NCBI GenBank assembly: GCA_902531245.1
Contig: CACADH010000003.1
Span: 15,394-79,393 of the forward strand
Source: an uncultured SAR86 cluster bacterium
Lineage (GTDB): Bacteria; Pseudomonadota; Gammaproteobacteria; Magnimaribacterales; D2472
Direction: 5' to 3'
Length of the DNA stretch: 64,000 bases
In this document: positions 826 to 54,703 of the stretch, in pieces
Position numbering within the stretch: position 1 is the stretch's first letter
Layout of the letters: each line of letters opens with the position of its first letter
Made by a program: the position numbers and the translations under genes
The notes under the pieces: generated by a model
The model's database searches: none
Told to the model about the DNA's origin: nothing
The model's input: only the letters and a program-made list of their open reading frames with translations

Positions 826-1498
826 CTCTGGATTTACCTTCAGAAGAGTAAGAGAAGAGATGATAGAAACTCTTCTAGATCTTGGCATTAAGGATTTTAG
901 AGTTCTAGATGCAATTTCTCAAATCCCTCGTCACATATTTCTTGATGAGGCATTATGGTCAAGAGCTTATGAGAATAGATCGTTAACAATAGGGTACAAA
1001 CAAACAATTTCCCAACCATACATTGTTGCTCGAATGACAGAATTACTAATATCTCACACCAATAGCAGAGGTAAAGTCTTTGAAAATTTACTAGAACTTG
1101 GTTCTGGGTGTGGTTATCAGTCAGCAGTTTTATCATTTTTTAGTGAAAAGGTTGATGCCATTGAAAGAATTAAACCTTTAGTTCATAAATCTAGAGAGAA
1201 TCTATCAAATCTTAAAATCAATAATGTACTTTTTAGGCATGGAGACGGTTATGAAGATTGGGATAAGCAAAAAAAATATGATGGTATTTTATGTGCAGCC
1301 GCCCCAAGAGCATATCCAAATGATTTGGTTTCTATATTAAATGATGATGCTAAGTTGGTTATTCCTGTGGGAGGCTCATCACAAAAATTAAATGTAATAA
1401 CAAAAAACAAAGATGAAGAAATTAAAGAAGAACAATATGATGATGTGTCATTTGTTCCGATGTTGGCAGGAAAATCAGAAGATGGTAATGATGTATGA
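818..1498 (+). CDS. pcm: protein-L-isoaspartate O-methyltransferase
   Basis: QTISQPYIVARM, LELGSGCGYQSA SAM-binding motif, FVPM C-terminus; follows surE. Confidence 0.95.
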   Translation: MSNSGFTFRRVREEMIETLLDLGIKDFRVLDAISQIPRHIFLDEALWSRAYENRSLTIGYKQTISQPYIVARMTELLISHTNSRGKVFENLLELGSGCGYQSAVLSFFSEKVDAIERIKPLVHKSRENLSNLKINNVLFRHGDGYEDWDKQKKYDGILCAAAPRAYPNDLVSILNDDAKLVIPVGGSSQKLNVITKNKDEEIKEEQYDDVSFVPMLAGKSEDGNDV

Positions 1499-2247
1499 AT
1501 GAAAAAATTAGATATTTTATAGCAGGCATATTTATTGGATTATCAGAATTATTACCAGGAATATCGGGTGCGACTGTTGCATTAATGTTTGGTGTATATG
1601 AAAAATTATTAGATTTCTTAAGAAAATTTAAGAATTCGAATCTAATACTACCTCTTTTATTTGGCATGATTTTAAGTGTTTTTTTATTTTCTTCTTTAAT
1701 TGATTTTTTATATGAGAACTATACTAAGATATTTAATATTCTAATTGCCATTCTGATGGTGGGATATGGAATTTTTTTAGTCATAAATACATTCATAAAT
1801 GGAAATATAAATAAGGGTAAATCATTTTATGTTTGTATTATATTATCTATATTGATTGGGCTTTCATTAAGTGGATTTTATATGACTGGTGCATATACTC
1901 CTGATGGTCCTTTTGTACCATCTTCAGCTGTCTTAATTTTATTTGGTTTTTTTGCATGCTCATTTCTACTTTTTCCTGGAATTTCAGGAAGTGCTTTTTT
2001 ATTAGCTGTTGGTGTCTATCCATTAATAATCGGAAGTATTTCAGGTTTAAACTTTGAGATTTTATTACCCTTTTTTATTGGAATGACTATCTCATTAATT
2101 CTTATGCCAAGATTAATCAATAAAGCTTACATAAGATTTGGAAATATGATACTAGTCTTCTTTGGAGGATTAATCTTTGCAGCTGGCATAGATAGCCTAA
2201 TTTCAATCATAGTGCCTAATCCGGAAACCTATGAGATTACCTTTTAA
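1495..2247 (+). CDS. DUF368 family membrane protein (putative undecaprenyl-phosphate translocase)
   Basis: Two PGISG motifs (LPGISGATVAL...GVY; FPGISGSAFLL..GVY) in a multi-TM protein. Confidence 0.85.
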   Translation: MNEKIRYFIAGIFIGLSELLPGISGATVALMFGVYEKLLDFLRKFKNSNLILPLLFGMILSVFLFSSLIDFLYENYTKIFNILIAILMVGYGIFLVINTFINGNINKGKSFYVCIILSILIGLSLSGFYMTGAYTPDGPFVPSSAVLILFGFFACSFLLFPGISGSAFLLAVGVYPLIIGSISGLNFEILLPFFIGMTISLILMPRLINKAYIRFGNMILVFFGGLIFAAGIDSLISIIVPNPETYEITF

Positions 2248-2853
2248 TTATTTTAAGGTTTTGATTTGAACATCTAAGAATTTATTCTTTTGAAGAAATT
2301 CCATAATTTTCATCGCCCATTCATGATATGCCTTTCCCTCTACATTAAGATTGACGACATTATCTTTATTAAGATTATCTAAAAGAGTATTTTCAAAAAT
2401 TATGTTATCCATATTAGAAAGGTCATCAATTTTGAATTTTGAATTATTAATAACTATTTCTCCATTATCATAAAGCAATATCGTATTTGAATTTTCACTA
2501 GGTGATGTTTTTTCATTTTGATCATTTATGCCAATGTTTAAGAATTCTCTTTTATTCTCTAAATCTTTAAAATTATCAGCATCAGGAAGTGGTTCTTTAG
2601 CCTCGGTTATATTTTCATAAACATCAGCAAGTCTTGCATTTATTTCAACAAACTCAATTTGGTTTGCTGGTAATTCATCATCTGCATATATTGCTTCAAT
2701 AGGGCACTCTGGTTCACATAGACCACAATCAATACATTCATCTGGATGTATTACTAGAAACTCAGGACCTTCATAAAAACAATCGACAGGACAAACCTCA
2801 ACACAGTCTGTGTATTTACATTTTATACATGATTCTGTTACTACGTATGTCAT
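2248..2853 (-). CDS. fdxA: 7Fe ferredoxin FdxA with C-terminal ExbD/TolR-like extension
   Basis: aa 1-107 are a classic FdxA ([17 protein letters not shown]...[12 protein letters not shown]); about 94 extra residues follow. Confidence 0.9.
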
Positions 2854-2972: not shown

Positions 2973-3980
2973 ATGCCTAAATCAAAAGACACTACTTCAA
3001 AATCACTAAAGGATACTATCGCTAGTATTGACGACCATTTTGGTAAAGGAACAGTAATGCGAATGGGTGATCGTGAAAATCTCGATATCCCTTCAATTTC
3101 TACAGGATCGCTTGGTCTTGACATAGCTCTTGGAATAGGCGGTATTCCAAGAGGAAGAGTTACAGAAATATATGGACCAGAATCTTCTGGTAAAACAACA
3201 TTAACACTTCAAATTATTGCTCAATGTCAAAAAGAAGGGGGTACATGTGCGTTTATTGATGCAGAACATGCATTAGATCCTCAATATGCTGAGAAACTAG
3301 GTGTTAATGTAGATGAACTTTTATTATCTCAACCTGATACTGGAGAACAAGCACTTGAAGTTGCTGATATGCTAGTTAAATCTAAGAGTGTAGATTTAGT
3401 TATTATTGATTCTGTTGCTGCACTAGTTCCAAGAGCTGAGATTGAAGGAGAGATGGGAGATCATCATGTTGGTCTTCAAGCTAGATTGATGTCACAAGCG
3501 CTTAGAAAAATTACAGGTAACATCCAAAGATCTGGAGCCACTGTCGTTTTTATCAATCAAATAAGAATGAAGATTGGAGTTATGTTTGGTAGTCCTGAAA
3601 CAACTACTGGAGGTAATGCTCTAAAGTTCTATTCTTCAGTAAGATTAGATATTAGAAGAATCGGATCTGTTAAAGAGGGAGATGAAGTGATGGGTAACGA
3701 AACACGAGTGAAAGTTGTTAAGAACAAAGTATCTCCTCCATTTAAACAAGCTGAGTTTCAGATCATGTATGGTCAAGGAATTAATCAGGAAGGTGAAATA
3801 CTAGACTTTGGTCATAAACTCGGGTTAGTGGAAAAATCAGGTGCTTTTTATAAATTGGATGGTGAAAGTATTGGGCAAGGCAAGGTGAAAGCTAGTATTT
3901 TCCTTAAAGAAAATGCAAAAGTTAGAGACAAACTTGTTAAAGAAATAAGATCATCCTATATTTCAAGTAAATCAAAATAG
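2973..3980 (+). CDS. recA: recombinase RecA
   Basis: GPESSGKTT Walker [35 protein letters not shown]. Confidence 0.99.
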
Positions 3981-10079: not shown

Positions 10080-11846
10080 ATGAAATCTCATTATTGTGGC
10101 GAAATAACATCCTCGAATCTTAAAGAAGAAGTAATGATTTGTGGCTGGGTTCATAGAAGAAGGGATCATGGAGGAGTAATATTTTTAGACATTAGAGACA
10201 TAAGAGGTATATGTCAGGCAGTCGTCAATCCAGATAATGCAAAATCATTTCAATTAGCAGAATCAATTAGGAATGAATATGTGGTGCAAATTAAAGGAAG
10301 TGTAAGAAAAAGATTAGAAGGAACTATTAATAAAAATATGCATACAGGCGAAATTGAGATTGAAGTAGGCGACTTAACAATTCTAAGCAAAGCCAAAACT
10401 CCAGTATTTCCAATTGATGAATACCAAGAGGTTAACGAAGATGTAAGACTTAAAAATCGAGTTTTAGATTTAAGAAGGCCTGAGATGAACGAAAGAATTA
10501 TAACCAGATCTAAAATAACTTCTTTAATAAGGAACTTTTTAGATAAAAATGATTTCCATGAAATTGAAACTCCTATATTAACCAAGGCAACACCAGAAGG
10601 AGCTAGGGATTATATTCTTCCAAGTAGAGTTCAACCAGGAAGCTTCTATGCTCTCCCACAGTCACCTCAACTATTTAAACAACTTCTTATGATAGGAGGT
10701 TTAGATAAATACTATCAAATAGCTAGATGTTTTAGGGATGAAGACTTAAGAGCAGACAGACAACCAGAGTTTACACAAATTGATATCGAAGCTTCTTTTA
10801 TAGATCAAGAAGAAATAATGAGTATTAGTGAAAAAATGATAAAAAATATCATTAAAGATTTTTGTGGAGATAAGCTAGAAAAATTTGAAGTTATCGATTG
10901 GCATGATGCAATGCGAGATTATGGATGTGATAAACCTGACTTAAGAATACCGTTAAGTTTGGTTGAAATTTCTGAGCAGGTAAAAGATGAAGAATTTAAA
11001 GTATTTTCTGAACCTGCATCTAAAAAAGGATCCAGAGTAGTTGCTTTAAAAGTACCTAATGGTAATTCATTATCAAGAGGACAAATAGATGATTACACTA
11101 AATTTGTATCCAAACTTGGAGCCAAAGGTTTGGCATATATAAAGATTAATGATGTAAAGGATTTAGAAAATGGCATCCAGTCTCCAATTCTTAAATTTTT
11201 AAAACCACAAACAGTAGAAAACATAATTAAGTCTTTAGATATTTCAACAGATGACTTAATTTTCTTTGGTGCAGGAAAAGAATCAGTTGTTAATTTATCA
11301 ATGAGTTCTTTGATTAAGAAACTTGGTGAAGACCTTGATTTATATTCTAAAAAATGGGCGCCTTGCTGGGTGGTTAACTTTCCGATGTTTGAAATTAATA
11401 ACGAAGGTAATCTAACACCTTTACATCACCCATTTACATTACCAAAATGTTCAATCAAAGGGATACAAGATAACCCTGATGAGGCAATCGCATACGCATA
11501 TGATGTTGTTTTAAACGGATATGAAATAGGGGGAGGGTCTTTAAGAATATTTGATACTTTAATGCAAAAAGCTATTTTTGATGTTTTAAATATCTCAAAA
11601 GATGAAGCAGAAAGTAAATTTGGATTTTTATTAAAAGCGCTTTCCTCAGGATGTCCACCTCATGGAGGTATAGCATTTGGTCTTGATAGAATTGTTATGC
11701 TTGTAACTGATACTTCAAATATAAGAGACGTCATTGCTTTTCCAAAAACACAAAGTGCGTCATGTTTGCTAACCGATGCGCCAAGTAAAGTAGATAAAGA
11801 TCAACTCGATGAGTTAAAAATAATAAGTACTCATAAGGAAGAATAA
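10080..11846 (+). CDS. aspS: aspartate--tRNA ligase
   Basis: RRRDHGGVIF, TPEGARDY, LPQSPQLFKQ, FRDEDLRADRQPEFTQID, PPHGGIAFGLDR. The HGG loop suggests the non-discriminating Asp/Asn type. Confidence 0.98.
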   Translation: MKSHYCGEITSSNLKEEVMICGWVHRRRDHGGVIFLDIRDIRGICQAVVNPDNAKSFQLAESIRNEYVVQIKGSVRKRLEGTINKNMHTGEIEIEVGDLTILSKAKTPVFPIDEYQEVNEDVRLKNRVLDLRRPEMNERIITRSKITSLIRNFLDKNDFHEIETPILTKATPEGARDYILPSRVQPGSFYALPQSPQLFKQLLMIGGLDKYYQIARCFRDEDLRADRQPEFTQIDIEASFIDQEEIMSISEKMIKNIIKDFCGDKLEKFEVIDWHDAMRDYGCDKPDLRIPLSLVEISEQVKDEEFKVFSEPASKKGSRVVALKVPNGNSLSRGQIDDYTKFVSKLGAKGLAYIKINDVKDLENGIQSPILKFLKPQTVENIIKSLDISTDDLIFFGAGKESVVNLSMSSLIKKLGEDLDLYSKKWAPCWVVNFPMFEINNEGNLTPLHHPFTLPKCSIKGIQDNPDEAIAYAYDVVLNGYEIGGGSLRIFDTLMQKAIFDVLNISKDEAESKFGFLLKALSSGCPPHGGIAFGLDRIVMLVTDTSNIRDVIAFPKTQSASCLLTDAPSKVDKDQLDELKIISTHKEE

Positions 11847-11849
11847 TTT

Positions 11850-12587
11850 ATGGCTGGTCATTCAAAGTGGGCAAACATAAAACACAGAAAAGCCAGACAG
11901 GATGCATCGAGAGGTAAGGTTTGGACAAAAGTTATTAGAGAAATAACTGTAGCCGCAAAAGATGGGCCTGACCCAAATGATAATCCTAGATTGAGATTAG
12001 CTCTTGAAAAAGCAAACGCGGCTAATATGCCAAAAGATACAATTAAAAGAGCTATTGAAAAGGGTTCAGGTACCGGCGAAACAGGTCAATTAGAAGAAAT
12101 TGTTTTTGAGGGCTATGGACCTGGTGGAGTAGCAATTTTGGTTGAAACTATGACTGACAATAGAAACAGAACTGTTTCAGATGTTAGACATGCTTTCTCA
12201 AAATTTGGAGGAAATCTTGGTACAGATGGATCAGTTTCATATTTATTTAAAAAGCTTGGTTTGATTCATATTAATAAAGAATTTTCTGAAGAAAAACTAA
12301 TGGAAGTAGTCATTGAGTCGGGTGCAATTGACATTACTAATGAAGAAGATTTTTTTGAAGTGACAACTGAGCCAAATGATTTTAATAAAATTATAGATAT
12401 TTTTAAGCAAAATGAGATTAAATATCTAAATGCAGAATTAACTTTACGAGCTGAGACCCTCGTAAGTTTAGATAATGAAATGTCAGAAAAAGTTTTAAAT
12501 ATAATGGAATTCATGGATGACCTTGATGATGTTCAAGAAGTTCATACCAACGCTGAATTCCCTGATAATTTTGAGGCTAAGGATTAA
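11850..12587 (+). CDS. yebC: YebC/PmpR family protein
   Basis: MAGHSKWANIKHRK, EGYGPGG, TDNRNRT, DDLDDVQEV. Confidence 0.97.
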   Translation: MAGHSKWANIKHRKARQDASRGKVWTKVIREITVAAKDGPDPNDNPRLRLALEKANAANMPKDTIKRAIEKGSGTGETGQLEEIVFEGYGPGGVAILVETMTDNRNRTVSDVRHAFSKFGGNLGTDGSVSYLFKKLGLIHINKEFSEEKLMEVVIESGAIDITNEEDFFEVTTEPNDFNKIIDIFKQNEIKYLNAELTLRAETLVSLDNEMSEKVLNIMEFMDDLDDVQEVHTNAEFPDNFEAKD

Positions 12588-12590
12588 ATT

Positions 12591-13016
12591 TTGTCTATAA
12601 ATTCAAGAAATAAAGGTGCTGCATTCGAAAGGCAAATAGCAAATGCACTTATAGATGATTTAAATCTAAAAAATCCTGTTAAAAGAATTCTTGAACAAAC
12701 TAGAACTAAAGAGCTGCCAGATCTTACACTTGGAAGATGGTGTATTGAATGTAAAGCCTATGGAACAGGTGCAGAGCCTAGACCTGATTGGTGGGAGCAA
12801 GTTCTTGCATCTTCAAGCGCAGAGGGATCAATGCCAGCGCTTGTCTACAAATTTAATAACAGACCAATAAAAGTTCGAATTCTTGCTAACTCAATTAATA
12901 AGAATATAAAAAATAATCTTGTGACAATCGATTTGTTATGGCCAGATTTTATTCAAATAATATTAGAACTATTTCAAGAGGACATAGAGCTTCATGAGCA
13001 AAATTATCAAGTGTGA
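12591..13016 (+). CDS. PD-(D/E)XK nuclease, putative Holliday junction resolvase (phage/Hjc-like)
   Basis: NSRNKGAAFERQIA helix, LPDL, CIECK catalytic motif, WWEQ...PALVYK; TTG start 3 bp after yebC. Confidence 0.75.
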   Translation: MSINSRNKGAAFERQIANALIDDLNLKNPVKRILEQTRTKELPDLTLGRWCIECKAYGTGAEPRPDWWEQVLASSSAEGSMPALVYKFNNRPIKVRILANSINKNIKNNLVTIDLLWPDFIQIILELFQEDIELHEQNYQV

Positions 13017-13404
13017 TGATCTAAATTATAAAGTCTATGTTGAAGATACCGATTTTCAAGGTTTTGTTTATCATGCAAATTATGTGAAATATTTTGAGAG
13101 ATCAAGGTCAGAATTTTTGTCAAAAAATGGAATACTACATAAAAAATTAATAAAGGCTGACACAGCCTTTGTTATAAAAAGAATCGAACTTTATTATAAA
13201 TCACCTGCTGAACTTGGAGATGAAATAATTGTCCAATCTAGTGTTGAAAAAAAGTCTGATGCAAGAATGATTTTTTATCAAAAAGTTATTAACAAAAAAA
13301 ATAATAAAGAGCATGTAAATGGAGAAGTAGAAGTGTGTTTTATTAATCTCATCACAAAAAAACCACAAAAGTTTCCGAATGATTTATTATTAATTTTTAA
13401 GTAG
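12994..13404 (+). CDS. ybgC: tol-pal associated acyl-CoA thioesterase YbgC
   Basis: VYVEDTDFQGFVYHANYVKYFERSRSE; first gene of the tol-pal cluster. Confidence 0.92.
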   Translation: MSKIIKCDDLNYKVYVEDTDFQGFVYHANYVKYFERSRSEFLSKNGILHKKLIKADTAFVIKRIELYYKSPAELGDEIIVQSSVEKKSDARMIFYQKVINKKNNKEHVNGEVEVCFINLITKKPQKFPNDLLLIFK

Positions 13405-13412
13405 GAAAAACT

Positions 13413-14084
13413 ATGGATGATATTTCAGTTTTAAATCTTTTTCTTGAAGCAGGAATGGTTGTAAAGATTGTCATGTTATTGCTTTTTATTGCTTCAATTT
13501 TATCTTGGATAGTTATTGTTGAAAGATATAATTTTTTTAGAAAGATAAAAAGTGATAATGATAATTTTCTAAAAACTTTTTGGAGTGGTAAAGATTTAGA
13601 TATTTTATATAAAGAAGTATCAAAAGAATCTTCACTTTATGGAGCTAAGAATCTTTTTAAGAATTCATTTGATGAGTTTTCTGCAATTAATTTAGAAGAT
13701 AATATTTCAGAATTTGATCTTGAGAGTATCAATAGATCAATGAGAGTCTCGATTGCTTCAGATGAAGAAGAGATGAATAAACATCTATCTTTTTTAGCCA
13801 ATGTTGGTTCAGTTAGTCCATATGTGGGATTATTAGGAACAGTTTGGGGTATCATGACATCTTTTCAAGGCTTATCTGACGCCACTCAGGCCACAATAAA
13901 TGCTGTTGCACCTGGTATCTCAGAAGCATTAATAGCAACTGGTATGGGATTATTTGCAGCAATTCCTGCTGTAGTAGCATTTAACAAATTTACTTCTGAA
14001 TCAGAGACAATTAGCCAGAGTACATTAATTTTTGCAGAGGAACTAGCAAGTATTTTTTATAAAAAATCAATTAATAAAAAATAA
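13413..14084 (+). CDS. tolQ: TolQ
   Basis: SPYVGLLGTVWGIM, VAPGISEALIATGMGLFAAIPAV. Confidence 0.96.
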   Translation: MDDISVLNLFLEAGMVVKIVMLLLFIASILSWIVIVERYNFFRKIKSDNDNFLKTFWSGKDLDILYKEVSKESSLYGAKNLFKNSFDEFSAINLEDNISEFDLESINRSMRVSIASDEEEMNKHLSFLANVGSVSPYVGLLGTVWGIMTSFQGLSDATQATINAVAPGISEALIATGMGLFAAIPAVVAFNKFTSESETISQSTLIFAEELASIFYKKSINKK

Positions 14085-14506
14085 TGATTTATAGACTGGC
14101 AAAGAAGAAGAACCTTAAAGCTGAAATTAATGTAGTTCCTTATATTGATGTAATGCTTGTTTTATTAATTATATTTATGGTTCTATCGCCACTTTTAATA
14201 CAAGGCATCGAAGTGAATTTACCTCAAACGGATACTACTAAAATGACAGTGCAAAATGAGCCACTTGTGATTTCAATTAACAAAGAAGGTAATTATTTTA
14301 TCAATGTTGGAGATGAATCTTTATCAATAAATCTAGAGGAACTAAAAAGAAAATCTAAAGTGATTTTTGATGCCAATCCTGATATTGAGGTGGTCTTTCA
14401 AAGCGACAAGGATGTTGCTTTTGATTTTGTAGCTAAAGGTATGGCTTCTGTTCAGAGTGTTGGAATATCTAAAATTGGTATCGTAACGTCAGGTTATGAG
14501 AATTAA
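14084..14506 (+). CDS. tolR: TolR
   Basis: AEINVVPYIDVMLVLLIIFM TM segment plus periplasmic domain. Confidence 0.95.
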   Translation: MIYRLAKKKNLKAEINVVPYIDVMLVLLIIFMVLSPLLIQGIEVNLPQTDTTKMTVQNEPLVISINKEGNYFINVGDESLSINLEELKRKSKVIFDANPDIEVVFQSDKDVAFDFVAKGMASVQSVGISKIGIVTSGYEN

Positions 14507-15122
14507 TAAAATATATTTAGAGGCATCTTTTATTTCATTTTTGATTCACGCATCAATCATTTTATATCTTCTCGGATATTTATATTTTGAAGCTAAAGAA
14601 AGATCTATCTTAAGCAGACCAATAGAAGTTAATTTAGTATTTAAAGATGAAGTTCTGATCAAAAGTAATGCAATTCAGATACAAGAAATTAAGATTGAGG
14701 ACTTAAAAGAGAGTACTCAGATCTCTCAAGATATAGTCACTGAAAAATCTATTTCATTCGATTCTCTTATTCCATCAACAAGTTTTGAAGATCTACTAAG
14801 AGAAGACAGTCTTATATCTCAAGAGTCTGAACAAAGCCAAGTAGAATTATTTAGTTCTTTAATCATTCAAAGTTTACAGTCAGCATGGCGAAAGCCTATC
14901 AATATTCAGGATGGGCTTATATGCGACTTGAGGATAACGATTAATAAAAACGGGAGAATTATAAATGTTAATCTTATCAAAAGTAGTGGAAATATAAGAT
15001 TTGATAACTCGGCTTTAATGGCAGTGCAAAGAATTGAAACTTTTAATTTTTTTAATAGCATTCCTTACAACATATATTTATCTAATTTTAAAAATATTGT
15101 TATAACATTTAACCCATCATGA
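14496..15122 (+). CDS. tolA: TolA (short)
   Basis: TM with SxxxH (SFLIH) and C-terminal domain (W..P...KSSGNIRFDNSAL.AV); lies between tolR and tolB. Confidence 0.8.
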   Translation: MRINKIYLEASFISFLIHASIILYLLGYLYFEAKERSILSRPIEVNLVFKDEVLIKSNAIQIQEIKIEDLKESTQISQDIVTEKSISFDSLIPSTSFEDLLREDSLISQESEQSQVELFSSLIIQSLQSAWRKPINIQDGLICDLRITINKNGRIINVNLIKSSGNIRFDNSALMAVQRIETFNFFNSIPYNIYLSNFKNIVITFNPS

Positions 15123-16375
15123 AAAAGACATTTTTAATATTGATATTTTCTAATTTTTTATTATCTGAGCTTGTTCTAGAGATCACTCAAGGAACAGAAG
15201 ATCCTTATAGAGTTGCATTAGTCCCATTTAAAGGAGATAAAGAAATTAGCGACACTTTGAACGATGTTATTCAAAACAATCTAATTAGATCTGGTGAATT
15301 TAAAATATTCGAAAGTGAAAAATTACTTTCTTTACCAAATAATGAAGAAGAAATTGTTTTTAATGACTTTAAAATTTTAAATATTGACTATTTGGTTATG
15401 GGAGAAATTCTTACTGAAGGATCAAATATCTCAGCTGAATATCAGGTTATTGACATTAAAAAAGGTTCAAAAGTTAGAACGTCAACAGTTTATGGCATTC
15501 CTAACAAGAATAGACAGCTTGGTCATTATATAAGTGATGGTATCTATGAAGAGATTACTGGAATTAAGGGTATAGCTGCTACAAAGATTCTCTATGTTAC
15601 ACAAAAAGAGGATTTTAATTTAGTTATTGCTGATGCTGATGGGGCTAATGAACAAATCCTACTTAAAAGCACAGAGCCAATTATTTCTCCTGTATGGTCT
15701 CCAGACTCAAAAAAAGTTGCATATGTTTCGTTCGAAACCGGAATGGCAAAAGTTTTTATTCAAGAAATAGCTTCAGGAAAAAGAGAAATTGTAATTGAAA
15801 ATTCATTTCAAATAAGTTCACCATCATTTTCACCAGATGGAAAATTTTTATCTTTAACAATGTATCAAGACGGTAATGCAGAAATTTATATTCTTAATTT
15901 AAAAAATAAAAACCTTACAAGATTAACAAATCATTATTCTATTGATACTGAGTCCTCGTGGTCACCAAGAGGCTCAAAAATCTTATTTACTTCTGGTCGG
16001 TCTGGATCTCCACAACTTTACGAATTAGAATTAAGAAGATTCAATTCAAGACCTAAAAGGTTAACTTTTGATGGTAATTACAATGCTAAAGGAGCCTATT
16101 TACCAAATAATGAAGGAATTGTATTTGTTCACAGAGCAAATACGAATTTTCAAATAGCAATTAAATATTTTGATGAAAATTTTATCAGGCCTCTTACTGA
16201 GGCTCAAATGGATGAATCTCCTAGCATTTCACCTAATGGAAATGTTATAGTCTACTCTATAACAGACGAGGGCATGGGATTGCTTTCTGGGGTGACTTTA
16301 AGTGGCGCTAAGTTTAGATTACCTGCTAAAAAAGGAGCTGTAAGGGAACCATCCTGGTCAGGATTTTTAAGATAA
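15119..16375 (+). CDS. tolB: Tol-Pal beta-propeller protein TolB
   Basis: Signal peptide, repeated SPxWSPD/PSFSPDG propeller motifs, AYVSFE. Confidence 0.95.
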   Translation: MKKTFLILIFSNFLLSELVLEITQGTEDPYRVALVPFKGDKEISDTLNDVIQNNLIRSGEFKIFESEKLLSLPNNEEEIVFNDFKILNIDYLVMGEILTEGSNISAEYQVIDIKKGSKVRTSTVYGIPNKNRQLGHYISDGIYEEITGIKGIAATKILYVTQKEDFNLVIADADGANEQILLKSTEPIISPVWSPDSKKVAYVSFETGMAKVFIQEIASGKREIVIENSFQISSPSFSPDGKFLSLTMYQDGNAEIYILNLKNKNLTRLTNHYSIDTESSWSPRGSKILFTSGRSGSPQLYELELRRFNSRPKRLTFDGNYNAKGAYLPNNEGIVFVHRANTNFQIAIKYFDENFIRPLTEAQMDESPSISPNGNVIVYSITDEGMGLLSGVTLSGAKFRLPAKKGAVREPSWSGFLR

Positions 16376-16391
16376 TATTAATGGAGTAAAT

Positions 16392-16880
16392 ATGTTTATT
16401 TTTAGAAATAAATTAAATTTTTTAATTGTTATAATTTTTTTGTCATCTTGTTCAAGCATGAACGTAACTCAAGAAAAAGTTAATTCTGGGGGAGTAAAAA
16501 CAGTAGAAGCAACATCTATAAATAATGAAAATATAAGATATGACAGCATGGCAGTTTTTGCTAATGCAACTATATATTTTGAATTTGATAAATCAAATTT
16601 AACAAGCAAATCAATTCAAACACTAAAAAGTACTGTTAATGCTTTAAATGATAATTCTTCTATTCAAATCACACTTTCTGGTCATGCTGATGAAAGAGGA
16701 ACAAGAGAATATAACCTGGCATTGGGTCAGAGAAGAGCTGAAACAGTAAGTGATTACCTTGTTCTTAATGGAATTAGTAAAAACAGAATTACTGTAAAAA
16801 GTTATGGTGAAGAAAGACCTGCGGTGTTAGGCCAAGATGAAAAAAGCTATTCAAAAAATAGAAGAGTTGAAATCAATTAA
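16392..16880 (+). CDS. pal: peptidoglycan-associated lipoprotein Pal
   Basis: Lipobox LSSC; GHADERGTREYNLALGQRRA; SYGEERP; NRRVE. Confidence 0.96.
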   Translation: MFIFRNKLNFLIVIIFLSSCSSMNVTQEKVNSGGVKTVEATSINNENIRYDSMAVFANATIYFEFDKSNLTSKSIQTLKSTVNALNDNSSIQITLSGHADERGTREYNLALGQRRAETVSDYLVLNGISKNRITVKSYGEERPAVLGQDEKSYSKNRRVEIN

Positions 16881-17539
16881 TGAATTGCAAAATTTGTTTA
16901 TTTAAATATTTCTATTTTTGTTTGTTTCTGATTCCCTTAGTAACTGCTAATGAGAATGAAGAAGCCAAAACAGATATCCTTTTCTTAAAGATTCAAGAGC
17001 TAGAATCTGAAATTGCAGACTTAAGAAACAAAATTGAATCTCAAAACTATCTGATCGAGAAATTAATAAAAGAATCTATAAATACCGATGAAAAAGAGAC
17101 TTTAAGTAATTTAGAGGATTTAACCTTAAATGCAGATATTAGATTTGAAGGTGTTGAAGATCTTGAAAGCAAAGATCAAGTTTATTCAGCTGCCATTAAT
17201 GCACTAGAAAATCAAAGTTTTGAAGAGTCACTAAATTTATTTAAGTATTTTGTTGAAAGCTTTAATGATGAAGAAAAAACACCTCTTTCTTATTTTTGGC
17301 TAGGAGAGATTTGTTTAATAAATAACGATTTAGAGAAATCTAATGACTATTTTATGGAACTAATAAGTTCTTATCCAAATCATTACAGAGTTCCATTAGC
17401 TCATAAAAAAATAGGAGATATTTTTCTTAGATCAAATGAAATTGAAAATGCAAAAGATAAATATAATTTTGTTGTAAGGGAATTCCCAAATAATACTGCC
17501 TCATCCTTAGCCTTGCAGTTATTGAAAAATATGGAATAA
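16880..17539 (+). CDS. cpoB: tol-pal TPR protein CpoB/YbgF
   Basis: Signal peptide, coiled coil, TPR repeats (YFWLGE); follows pal. Confidence 0.85.
   Translation: MNCKICLFKYFYFCLFLIPLVTANENEEAKTDILFLKIQELESEIADLRNKIESQNYLIEKLIKESINTDEKETLSNLEDLTLNADIRFEGVEDLESKDQVYSAAINALENQSFEESLNLFKYFVESFNDEEKTPLSYFWLGEICLINNDLEKSNDYFMELISSYPNHYRVPLAHKKIGDIFLRSNEIENAKDKYNFVVREFPNNTASSLALQLLKNME

Positions 17540-51971: not shown

Positions 51972-54703
<2,732 letters not shown>

Follow-up and report, generated by a model that had tools for sequence, protein, structure and literature searches.

Which enzyme resolves Holliday junctions in a bacterium whose ruv locus holds a single, unrelated gene? The question is raised by a 64,000-nucleotide stretch of genomic DNA (hereafter the window) from an uncultured member of SAR86, a lineage of small genomes that ranks among the most abundant free-living bacterial groups of the surface ocean. 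RuvC possesses an RNase H fold, cleaves in a sequence-dependent manner and works with the RuvAB motor, which to our knowledge nearly all bacteria possess. A first-pass annotation of the window proposed that a 141-aa ORF between yebC and ybgC had displaced RuvABC in situ and non-orthologously. Our analysis supports this proposal, as the slot, the absence of RuvABC, the Hjc-like fold and the phage family all held. With a probability of roughly 70%, we read the gene as encoding an Hjc-like Holliday junction resolvase, domesticated from phage, that took the place of RuvABC in situ.

We examined the locus itself by comparing its ORFs with Pfam and NCBIfam models. The gene order aspS-yebC-[141-aa ORF]-ybgC-tolQRAB-pal given by the annotation was recovered from the ORFs and their NCBIfam neighbours (Table 1), with tolQRAB-pal-ybgF (13413..17539, plus strand) forming the downstream anchor of the block. 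The ybgC product scores above the TIGR00051 cut-off (88.8 bits against 68.7) and below that of TIGR02799 (121.7 bits against 141). As annotated, the nuclease gene lies 3 bp after yebC and overlaps ybgC: the yebC stop codon (TAA, 12585-12587) is followed by three nucleotides (ATT) and the TTG codon at 12591, and the end of the gene shares 23 nt with the ybgC ORF, which opens with ATG at 12994. A recent insertion of the gene was rejected because its surroundings hold only AT-rich chance repeats, its GC content (0.347, versus 0.26-0.38 in neighbouring bins) shows no anomaly, and no plus-strand terminator-like site was found between yebC and ybgC. The same survey of repeats, GC content and terminators agrees with the annotation in detecting no flanking mobile-element remnants.

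Table 1. Features of the locus and of the upstream recA gene, in window positions
Feature	Position	Strand	Evidence and remarks
recA	2973..3980	+	PF00154, 473 bits at window 3000-3785; 8.6 kb upstream, outside the operon
aspS (aspartate--tRNA ligase)	10080..11846	+	NF001750, 828 bits; upstream anchor of the conserved block
yebC (YebC/PmpR)	11850..12587	+	Pfam; NF001030, 341.8 bits; precedes ruvC in canonical genomes
AAGGA, Shine-Dalgarno-like, putative role	12579..12583	+	7 nt 5' of the TTG, within the end of yebC
PDDEXK_15 (PF24608) nuclease gene	12591..13016	+	141 aa, TTG start; putative Hjc-like Holliday junction resolvase
Proposed catalytic residues of the 141-aa protein	E13, D44, E53, K55		
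ybgC-type acyl-CoA thioesterase	12994..13404	+	Pfam 4HBT_2; first gene of the tol-pal cluster
tolQ	13413-14084	+	NCBIfam, 252.7 bits, over cut-off
tolR	14084-14506	+	123.7 bits, just under the 127.3 cut-off
tolA	14496-15122	+	C-terminal part only, 45.6 bits, under cut-off
tolB	15119-16375	+	383 bits, over cut-off
pal	16392-16880	+	136 bits, over cut-off
ybgF/cpoB	16880-17539	+	74.9 bits, under the 90.1 cut-off

Next, we asked to which family the 141-aa protein belongs. Its translation contains K8-G9, F12-E13-R14, P43-D44 and I52-E53-C54-K55, confirming the KG..FER, PD and IECK motifs of the annotation and matching the E...(P)D...(D/E)XK pattern of the PD-(D/E)XK superfamily. The four proposed catalytic residues are invariant in 12 SAR86-order sequences and, together with G9 and R32, across 46 diverse family sequences. 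The protein matches PF24608 ('Phage putative PDDEXK endonuclease') with 39.4 bits (E 7.2e-10; gathering cut-off 27), residues 4-109 aligning with profile positions 1-124 of 164, and this domain is present in 120/120 close homologues among the matches listed. It also matches phrog_244 (7.5e-14), a junction resolvase family labelled 'RusA-like', a label that probably denotes function, not structure. Models of RuvC (PF02075), RecU (PF03838) and RusA (PF05866) did not match the protein, nor did any in NCBIfam or PADLOC. PF01870 (Hjc) gave no match to it at E<=1, and a genome scan with that model returned nothing at the locus. Searches of PDB sequences with the single protein or a narrower profile yielded chance matches only; a broader profile from the 46 sequences placed Hjc of S. 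solfataricus first, at a non-significant E of 0.39, with the KG..ER, D and ExK motifs lined up. Our literature search returned no paper naming PDDEXK_15 or PF24608.

To place the fold, two AlphaFold models of the nuclease (pLDDT 84.5 and 93.0) were compared with solved structures. Both adopt a restriction-endonuclease-like alpha/beta fold, and nearly all structural matches with Z>=5 are PD-(D/E)XK nucleases. Only 3 of 48,161 PDB chains reach Z>=8, all of them archaeal Hjc or Hje (Z 8.9-10.1): Hje 1ob8 (Z 10.1 and 10.0 for the two models, rmsd 2.7-2.8, 101 aa), P. furiosus Hjc 1gef (9.3 and 9.9) and A. fulgidus Hjc 2wcw (8.9 and 9.9). A further Hjc, 1hh1, follows at 7.1 and 7.6; the next unrelated chains stand at Z <=7.0, with restriction enzymes, NucC and homing endonucleases at Z 6-7. 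Foldseek against the PDB gave archaeal junction resolvases (Hjc, Hje or ST1444) at all of ranks 1-10. The Hjc likeness claimed by the annotation is thus borne out by the models, whose predicted fold is Hjc-like, with Hjc and Hje closest among solved structures. Fold alone proves no junction specificity; junction-specific and branch-specific nucleases are inseparable by fold match.

The resemblance to archaeal Hjc/Hje (1gef, 2wcw, 1hh1, 1ob8; PF01870) extends to size (120-140 aa), to the alpha/beta PD-(D/E)XK fold (Z 7.1-10.1 over 101-106 residues) and to the order of an N-terminal KG..ER, then D, then ExK. Archaeal Hjc/Hje are the only resolvase in cells of a lineage without RuvC, and the same role is predicted for the SAR86 protein. 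Passages of PMC10956419 give the Hjc motif as E..PD..EXK, describe Hjc as lacking sequence specificity and report that an archaeal Hjc restored DNA repair in RuvC-less E. coli. The two groups differ in that sequence similarity is not significant (E 0.39; no PF01870 match), the motif spacing is not the same (D44 to E53 is 9 residues in the SAR86 protein), and the SAR86 models contain an extra C-terminal helix pair, predicted at residues 117-138. In addition, the SAR86 protein is bacterial and the remainder of its family phage-borne. Archaeal partners, among them PCNA and Hel308, have no bearing on it.

We then compared the slot with its counterpart in RuvC-bearing genomes. One such gammaproteobacterium (locus L090) shows aspS-yebC-ruvC-ruvA-ruvB-ybgC-tolQ, and in 7/10 RuvC-bearing loci yebC is followed by a gap of 2.3-2.6 kb and then ybgC-tolQ, in accord with the canonical yebC-ruvC-ruvA-ruvB-ybgC order on which the annotation relied. 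The yebC-ybgC gap in the window is 0.4 kb and holds only the nuclease ORF. Among relatives, the order aspS-yebC-PDDEXK_15-tolQ was seen in 14/14 loci examined (4 families), with a ybgC match between PDDEXK_15 and tolQ in 13/14 (none at L020), and the yebC-to-tolQ locus was contiguous and free of ruv genes in all 14. The nuclease therefore shares with the RuvABC resolvasome its chromosomal slot, its neighbours (yebC upstream, ybgC-tol-pal downstream) and, presumably, its cellular task, whereas it is one 141-aa protein of unrelated fold with no motor.

Counts across the order, made on 104 SAR86-order genomes at least 85% complete (19 genera, 57 high quality), are consistent with a replacement. 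RuvC was found in 0/104 of them (0/57 high quality; 19 genera), and PDDEXK_15 in 101/104 (55/57 high quality, 19/19 genera), indicating a single-copy core gene of the order. Together with the PF24608 cut-off passed and a pN/pS of 0.143 (versus 0.179-0.372 in four neighbouring genes), this distribution establishes that the ORF is more than chance; pN/pS was the measure of selection, dS between the window and its relatives being saturated (about 2). RuvA_N and RuvB_C were each found in 0/41 relatives, a smaller sample than the 104 searched for RuvC. The window's own genome, 74.9% complete, contains no RuvC, RuvA_N or true RuvB; RuvB_N matches in it were rejected as RuvB, the best being ClpX and the others lying in ORFs of 528, 799 and 641 aa. 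Thus no intact ruvABC was found in this genome or its relatives, as the displacement proposed by the annotation predicts. On a wider scale the pattern is reversed: RuvC was detected in 296/301 genomes of a class-wide sample and PDDEXK_15 in 5/300. In a phylum sample PDDEXK_15 occurred in 9/401 genomes, the window's own included, and the 8 outsiders all kept RuvC (8/8) and showed yebC/tol synteny in none.

Could RuvABC instead be present and merely missed, through MAG assembly gaps or extreme divergence, leaving the nuclease as an accessory? The incompleteness of the window's genome and the draft MAG or SAG status of most relatives would favor this, but the absence of RuvC extends to single-contig assemblies (G026, G030, G031, G033, G034, G379, G382, G391) within the set at least 85% complete, the Ruv models match in 8-10 of 10 bacterial control genomes and find RuvC throughout nearly the whole class sample, and the ancestral locus is unbroken and ruv-free wherever we examined it. 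We consider such an oversight hardly credible.

Outside SAR86, the PDDEXK_15 family is phage-borne. A profile built from a 10-sequence subset of the 46-sequence alignment retrieved at least 551 viral contigs which, with PF24608 and phrog_244, uphold the viral-type assignment of the annotation. In the viral loci, an exonuclease VIII-like gene lies within two genes downstream in 22/28 and a Gp2.5-like annealing protein gene in 10/28, and one homologue neighbours NinB/Orf in the nin-like region of a prophage. Parsimony, applied to an unrooted tree, favours transfer from phage to cell without demonstrating it. Hjc-type resolvases do circulate in bacterial viruses, as Hjc_15-6 of Thermus phage Tth15-6 illustrates (7bgs; PMC8805305); this protein is likewise of the archaeal-like PD-(D/E)XK junction-resolving type and bacteriophage-encoded. 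It is, however, a distant structural match to the SAR86 protein (Z 5.5, 84 residues) from a different sequence family, and its gene belongs to a phage, whereas the SAR86 gene is read as a domesticated core gene of the host.

Other recombination genes were surveyed in a panel of five genomes, of which four are 95-97% complete. RecA and RecO were each found in 5/5, implying that junctions should form. RusA (PF05866), RecU (PF03838) and Pfam Hjc over cut-off were each found in 0/5, and RadA and RecQ were not found in the five. RuvX/YqgF, which might be put forward as another resolvase, occurs in 4/5. RecG is kept in most SAR86 families and absent from the window's own subclade (five genera).

From these observations we propose the following course of events. 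The common ancestor of the SAR86 order would have acquired a PDDEXK_15 gene, which would have replaced ruvC-ruvA-ruvB between yebC and ybgC, reducing about 2.4 kb to 0.43 kb in a manner that may reflect genome streamlining. With the short gap after yebC and the overlap with ybgC, the newcomer would have kept the ancestral transcriptional context of ruvC. In the cell, RecA, loaded by RecO(R), would make four-way junctions where gaps or stalled forks occur. By analogy with Hjc, the nuclease would bind a junction through recognition of its structure, most likely as a homodimer. With E13, D44, E53 and K55 holding Mg2+, it would place one nick in each of two strands of the same polarity, close to the crossover, after which ligase would seal the nicked duplexes. 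As RuvC needs RuvAB to bring the junction to a cleavable sequence and Hjc-type enzymes cut irrespective of sequence, a single sequence-independent resolvase may have made RuvAB dispensable. RecG could serve as a junction motor in most SAR86 families; in the window's subclade, which is without it, the enzyme would cut junctions wherever they are located. More tentatively, and at somewhat less than even odds, SAR86 recombination may rely on no more than RecA, RecO(R) and a single Hjc-like resolvase of phage origin that cuts irrespective of sequence, and the window's subclade, lacking RuvAB, RecG, RadA and RecQ, may have no dedicated motor for branch migration.

A different function for the nuclease was also weighed. 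It might be a broad debranching enzyme acting on forks, flaps and D-loops rather than a dedicated resolvase, with junctions avoided or removed otherwise. The exonuclease and annealing-protein genes that adjoin its phage relatives are consistent with this, as is the statement in PMC3864405 that the resolvases of viruses tend to be more promiscuous than those of bacteria and are often debranching enzymes; given such promiscuity, a domesticated SAR86 copy may act on forks or flaps and not strictly on junctions, and the fold matches do not separate the two. We nevertheless judge this unlikely, since the best matches are cellular Hjc/Hje (Z 8.9-10.1) and not phage debranching enzymes of the T7 endonuclease I type, the genomes searched yielded no further resolvase, and the gene fills the ruvC slot exactly. 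Less probable still is a nuclease unrelated to recombination (restriction-like, defence, homing or RNA-processing) that came to its position by accident, junctions being handled by RuvX/YqgF, topoisomerases or Xer, or left unresolved. PD-(D/E)XK domains are multifunctional, with NucC, restriction enzymes and a homing endonuclease at Z 6-7 to the models, and the presence of RuvX in most of the panel would supply a substitute. Against it stand the lack of any PADLOC match, an operon without a partner methylase or sensor gene, phage homologues situated in recombination modules, strong conservation by pN/pS, and single-copy core status with fixed synteny in every genus, defence genes being usually patchy. 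The domesticated junction resolvase accordingly remains our preferred reading.

Set beside the resolvases known to substitute for RuvC, the proposed SAR86 system shows both likeness and difference. RecU of Firmicutes and Mollicutes provides, according to passages of PMC3403352, the known bacterial case of a PD-(D/E)XK resolvase in place of RuvC, in lineages that keep RuvAB and carry recU away from ruvAB; a survey in the same source reports RuvAB in all RuvC-bearing bacteria. The SAR86 protein, its activity being predicted, would likewise be a PD-(D/E)XK resolvase replacing RuvC in a bacterium. Unlike the RecU lineages, SAR86 is also without RuvA and RuvB and has its new gene inside the ruv locus, and the RecU structure (1y1o) gives a lower match (Z 5.8-6.2), with PF03838 missing from the panel. 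RusA and the lambdoid prophage resolvases (PF05866) are similarly phage-derived and able to take over cellular junction resolution; the 'RusA-like' label and the homologue beside NinB/Orf recall them. They differ in fold and family, as the structural matches are to Hjc and not RusA and PF05866 was not found. According to passages of PMC3403352, RusA favours particular sequences for cleavage and presumably depends on RecG.

If the more tentative reading of a minimal recombination toolkit is true, no bacterial lineage before SAR86 would have been known to replace the whole RuvABC resolvasome in situ by a virus-supplied enzyme. The displacement itself would provide a clean case of a core DNA-repair machine displaced in situ, non-orthologously, by a viral gene during genome streamlining, and a candidate function is predicted for an uncharacterised Pfam family widespread in marine phages. 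Our literature search returned nothing joining SAR86 with RuvC or with Holliday junctions, and its matches for SAR86 with resolvase were irrelevant. On the more tentative reading, the replacement would amount to a natural experiment in which a resolvase free of sequence preference spares the cell a junction motor. The system raises the question whether bacterial junction resolution always needs a branch-migration motor or does so only with a sequence-selective resolvase. The RecG-plus and RecG-minus SAR86 clades make this long-standing motor question testable. A resolvase of this kind would also bear on the interpretation of recombination rates in SAR86 populations. With patchy coverage, possible DNA carry-over and no weight placed on uncovered stretches, a weak hint of expression comes from four seawater RNA libraries (2 studies), whose contigs overlap parts of the nuclease gene and span both of its gene junctions, examples being 12503-12616, 12414-12616 and 12851-13066.

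The nuclease gene lies in a run of genes identified with NCBIfam and Pfam models as aspS, yebC, a YbgC-type thioesterase, tolQ, tolR, tolA, tolB, pal and ybgF, with TolR, TolA, YbgF and the YbgC equivalog model falling slightly below the curated NCBIfam cut-offs. Reading of the sequence places AAGGA 7 nt 5' of the TTG start. A scan of the window sequence revealed no repeats of note flanking the gene, and we found neither a compositional anomaly at the gene nor a terminator-like site on the + strand between it and its neighbours. The gene order and spacing described in the first-pass annotation are thus confirmed, as is its claim that flanking mobile-element remnants are absent. The TolA of the window matches the TolA model through its C-terminal domain alone (45.6 bits, below cut-off); it looks shortened, which fits a small genome.

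Coordinates of the nuclease gene, its surroundings and related loci in other genomes
Sequence	Feature	Position	Strand	Remark
Window	recA	2973-3980	+	same strand as nuclease gene, 8.6 kb upstream
Window	yebC stop codon	12585-12587	+	followed by 3 bases, then the nuclease TTG
Window	nuclease ORF	12591..13016	+	141 aa, TTG start
Window	ATG of next ORF (ybgC-type)	12994		23-nt overlap with nuclease ORF end
Window	tolA	14496-15122	+	208 aa
L020 (G027, family f4)	tolQ directly after nuclease gene	1492-2525		ybgC match absent between
G389, C4	PDDEXK_15 copy	52025-52354		
G389, C1	PDDEXK_15 copy	343377-343700		
G198, L021	111-aa ORF	1483-1818	+	weak PDDEXK_15-like match, 22.7 bits, below cut-off

The protein matches PF24608 (PDDEXK_15, 'Phage putative PDDEXK endonuclease') of Pfam with 39.4 bits against a gathering cut-off of 27, and phrog_244, labelled 'RusA-like Holliday junction resolvase', at 7.5e-14; no NCBIfam or PADLOC model matched it. 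Searching a collection of 5.8 billion proteins gave 590 relatives at E<=1e-3, and PF24608 is carried by 120 of the 120 relatives among the matches listed, which their source annotates only as 'hypothetical protein'. A profile built from 12 order-wide nuclease sequences gave 877 cluster representatives at E<=1e-3. All motifs claimed earlier are present (K8-G9, F12-E13-R14, P43-D44 and I52-E53-C54-K55), and an alignment of 46 diverse family members reveals G9, E13, R32, D44, E53 and K55 to be invariant. Judged from this alignment, the invariant residues are the E...PD...EXK signature of PD-(D/E)XK nucleases. Passages of a 2024 review give the Hjc motif as E(X)nPD(X)mEXK and the essential residues of P. 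furiosus Hjc as E9, R10, D33, E46 and K48 (PMC10956419). A sequence search of the PDB with the nuclease returned no significant match; with a broader profile, the best of 177,635 PDB sequences was S. solfataricus Hjc at a non-significant E of 0.39, in an alignment superposing KG..ER, D and ExK on the nuclease. Literature searches, which covered few subscription journals, found no paper that names PF24608 or connects SAR86 with RuvC, resolvases or Holliday junctions.

Two AlphaFold models of the nuclease, from alignments of 12 sequences (pLDDT 84.5, pTM 0.81) and 46 sequences (pLDDT 93.0, pTM 0.88), were compared exhaustively with 48,161 PDB chains and gave the same picture. Only three chains reached Z>=8, all of them archaeal junction resolvases: Hje 1ob8 (Z 10.1 and 10.0 for the two models; rmsd 2.7-2.8 over 101 residues), P. 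furiosus Hjc 1gef (9.3 and 9.9) and A. fulgidus Hjc 2wcw (8.9 and 9.9). S. solfataricus Hjc 1hh1 scored 7.1 and 7.6, and the best unrelated nucleases (NucC, I-Ssp6803I and restriction enzymes) at most 7.0; RecU and Hjc_15-6 of a Thermus phage matched with only Z 5.8-6.2 and Z 5.5, respectively. In Foldseek searches of the PDB, ranks 1-10 were Hjc, Hje or ST1444 (best E 5.8e-4), and among 28 matches at E<=1e-3 to predicted viral structures, those with a name are annotated as Hjc or Holliday junction resolvase. The Hjc likeness first proposed from motifs therefore extends to the predicted fold.

The order aspS-yebC-PDDEXK-(ybgC)-tolQ was found in 14/14 loci of relatives from all four families of the order. 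For comparison of the slot, ten RuvC-bearing gammaproteobacterial loci were used. Seven have yebC, an interval of 2.3-2.6 kb and then ybgC-tolQ; one has tolQ without a ybgC match, and in the remaining two the stretch contains neither. In one RuvC-bearing locus (L090), the yebC-ybgC interval holds exactly three genes, RuvC (214.7 bits), RuvA (RuvA_N, 92.5 bits) and RuvB (RuvB_N, 266.9 bits), so that the canonical yebC-ruvC-ruvA-ruvB-ybgC arrangement is upheld. According to sections of a 2012 survey, roughly half of RuvC-bearing bacteria have yebC and ruvC in a common operon, and YbgC and Tol proteins number among RuvABC's strongest genomic neighbours (PMC3403352). Cumulatively, L090, the other RuvC-bearing loci and these neighbour data indicate that the nuclease gene sits at the ancestral ruvC-ruvA-ruvB position.

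RuvC and RuvA_N were not found in the window's genome (1.11 Mb, 22 contigs, 74.9% complete), and its RuvB_N matches are weak AAA+ ones, the best being ClpX and hence not RuvB. As this genome is incomplete, its relatives carry the argument for the absence of RuvABC. Among 41 relatives (4 families, 9 genera), none has RuvC, RuvA_N or RuvB_C, and PDDEXK_15 is present in 36, including 22/22 of high quality. Across 104 order genomes at least 85% complete (19 genera, 57 genomes of high quality), RuvC is found in 0/104 and 0/57, and PDDEXK_15 in 101/104 and 55/57, with all 19 genera represented. The proposed absence of RuvABC thus held beyond the window. In class-wide genomes at least 90% complete, RuvC occurs in 296/301 (292/297 without 4 unpublished genomes) and PDDEXK_15 in 5/300; the phylum sample has PDDEXK_15 in 9/401, the window's genome among the nine. 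The five RuvC-less class genomes comprise three of the SAR86 order plus G150 and G263; the five PDDEXK_15-positive ones comprise three of the order, one prophage copy and one match below cut-off. All eight phylum outsiders with PDDEXK_15 keep RuvC (genomes of 2.9-4.9 Mb), and their PDDEXK_15 genes lack aspS, yebC, ybgC and tolQ as neighbours.

Some genomes stand apart. Two gammaproteobacteria outside SAR86, G150 (99% complete, 2.4 Mb) and G263 (93%, 2.1 Mb), have neither a RuvC nor a PDDEXK_15 match. The streamlined gammaproteobacterium G198 (1.1 Mb, 99% complete) retains RuvC, and its 111-aa ORF lies in a context that is neither phage nor yebC. PDDEXK_15 is single-copy in order genomes except in G389, whose two copies could have arisen by duplication or by a second acquisition, or could come from mixed bins.

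Scanning one genome per species gave 64 loci with the nuclease gene, including the single-cell genomes SCGC AAA076-P13 (83% identical protein) and SCGC AAA168-P09 (86%) and MAG TMED112; AAA076-P13 and D2472 are listed as genera of the gammaproteobacterial SAR86 cluster in a section of PMC9771814, and on that basis the order is named SAR86 here. SAR86-type genes on four contigs binned as Rhodospirillaceae (L026, 98% identity), Thaumarchaeota (L073, 58%), Halobacteriovoraceae (L082, 50%) and a euryarchaeote (L089, 52%) are probably binning contamination rather than transfer. Outside SAR86, six cultured marine phages (five Roseobacter phages and Phage C72C1) encode family members at 30-42% identity, and relatives are also encoded on at least 551 viral contigs of IMG/VR. 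A maximum-likelihood tree was built from 148 sequences of 100-200 aa clustered at 70% identity, which left 32 (10 SAR86, 21 IMG/VR and 1 cultured phage; L017 and L101 were not among the kept rows). One branch with 100/100 support separates all SAR86 sequences from the rest. Because the tree is unrooted, a single phage-derived acquisition by the ancestor of the order would be the parsimonious reading, not proof.

We consider it likely (probability about 0.7) that the nuclease serves SAR86 cells as their Holliday junction resolvase, an Hjc-like, phage-derived enzyme that displaced RuvABC in situ and whose activity we infer. A debranching nuclease of broader range is an improbable alternative, and a role unrelated to recombination is less probable still. 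The viral relatives bear on function through their neighbours. In two of the six cultured phages, the PDDEXK_15 gene belongs to a replication and recombination module, with a PD-(D/E)XK exonuclease-like gene, SSB and primase/helicase a few genes downstream. We scanned 28 IMG/VR contigs of at least 7 kb for the two adjacent same-strand ORFs to either side of the gene. In 22 of them an exonuclease VIII-like gene (phrog_412) follows no more than two genes downstream, and 10 have a Gp2.5-like single-strand annealing protein (phrog_112) within that downstream distance; as the phages are mutually related, the counts are not independent. A recurring marine-phage module (IMG/VR L106-L173; L100, L101) starts with PDDEXK_15, sometimes followed by a small ORF, and continues with exonuclease VIII-like, Gp2.5-like annealing/SSB and primase-helicase genes. 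In G222, the sole large-genome gammaproteobacterium with a good PDDEXK_15 match, the gene lies in a nin-like region of a prophage, with NinB/Orf and an HNH gene as its neighbours. That ruvABC is present and was missed is very hard to credit; control genomes matched as expected in each RuvC, RuvA, RuvB and PDDEXK_15 search, and several order assemblies are recorded as one contig.

RuvC cleaves at preferred sequences, and RuvAB brings those to the crossover. For the same reason RusA is thought to need RecG, as worded in part of PMC3403352. Portions of PMC10956419 describe Hjc as free of sequence specificity and state that E. coli without RuvC regains repair when given an archaeal Hjc. A sequence-independent resolvase of this kind would make a branch-migration motor no longer necessary. 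Five genomes were surveyed for the remaining kit: the window's own (G000), two of its genus that are 96-97% complete and two of other families at 95-97% (G002, G019, G026 and G031). RecA and RecO were found in 5/5 and RuvX/YqgF in 4/5. RusA, RecU and Pfam Hjc over cut-off were found in none of the five, nor were RadA/Sms over cut-off (best 42 bits, in ~800-aa ORFs), RecQ (best 31 bits) or RecB (best 79 bits, in a 724-733-aa helicase ORF). The recombination kit of these five genomes looks extremely reduced. Full-length RecG (at least 530 bits) occurs in 53/55 genomes belonging to families f2-f4 and in 16/17 genomes of four f1 genera; it is absent from the window's genome and from all 31 genomes (at least 85% complete) of the five other f1 genera (g1, g272, g273, g277 and g278). 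The best RecG match in RecG-less genomes is the helicase part of a ~1,100-aa ORF, taken to be a putative Mfd. The absence of RecG in this f1 subclade is a second, later loss after that of RuvABC, and the window's subclade appears to be without a known branch-migration motor.

Comparing the window with 24 same-family loci gave a median pN/pS of 0.143 for the nuclease, 0.179 for yebC, 0.198 for aspS, 0.207 for tolQ and 0.372 for ybgC, with dS saturated and dN/dS unreliable. Four seawater RNA libraries (two studies) contain contigs that partially cover the nuclease gene and bridge both gene junctions, a weak hint that yebC, the nuclease gene and ybgC are co-transcribed.
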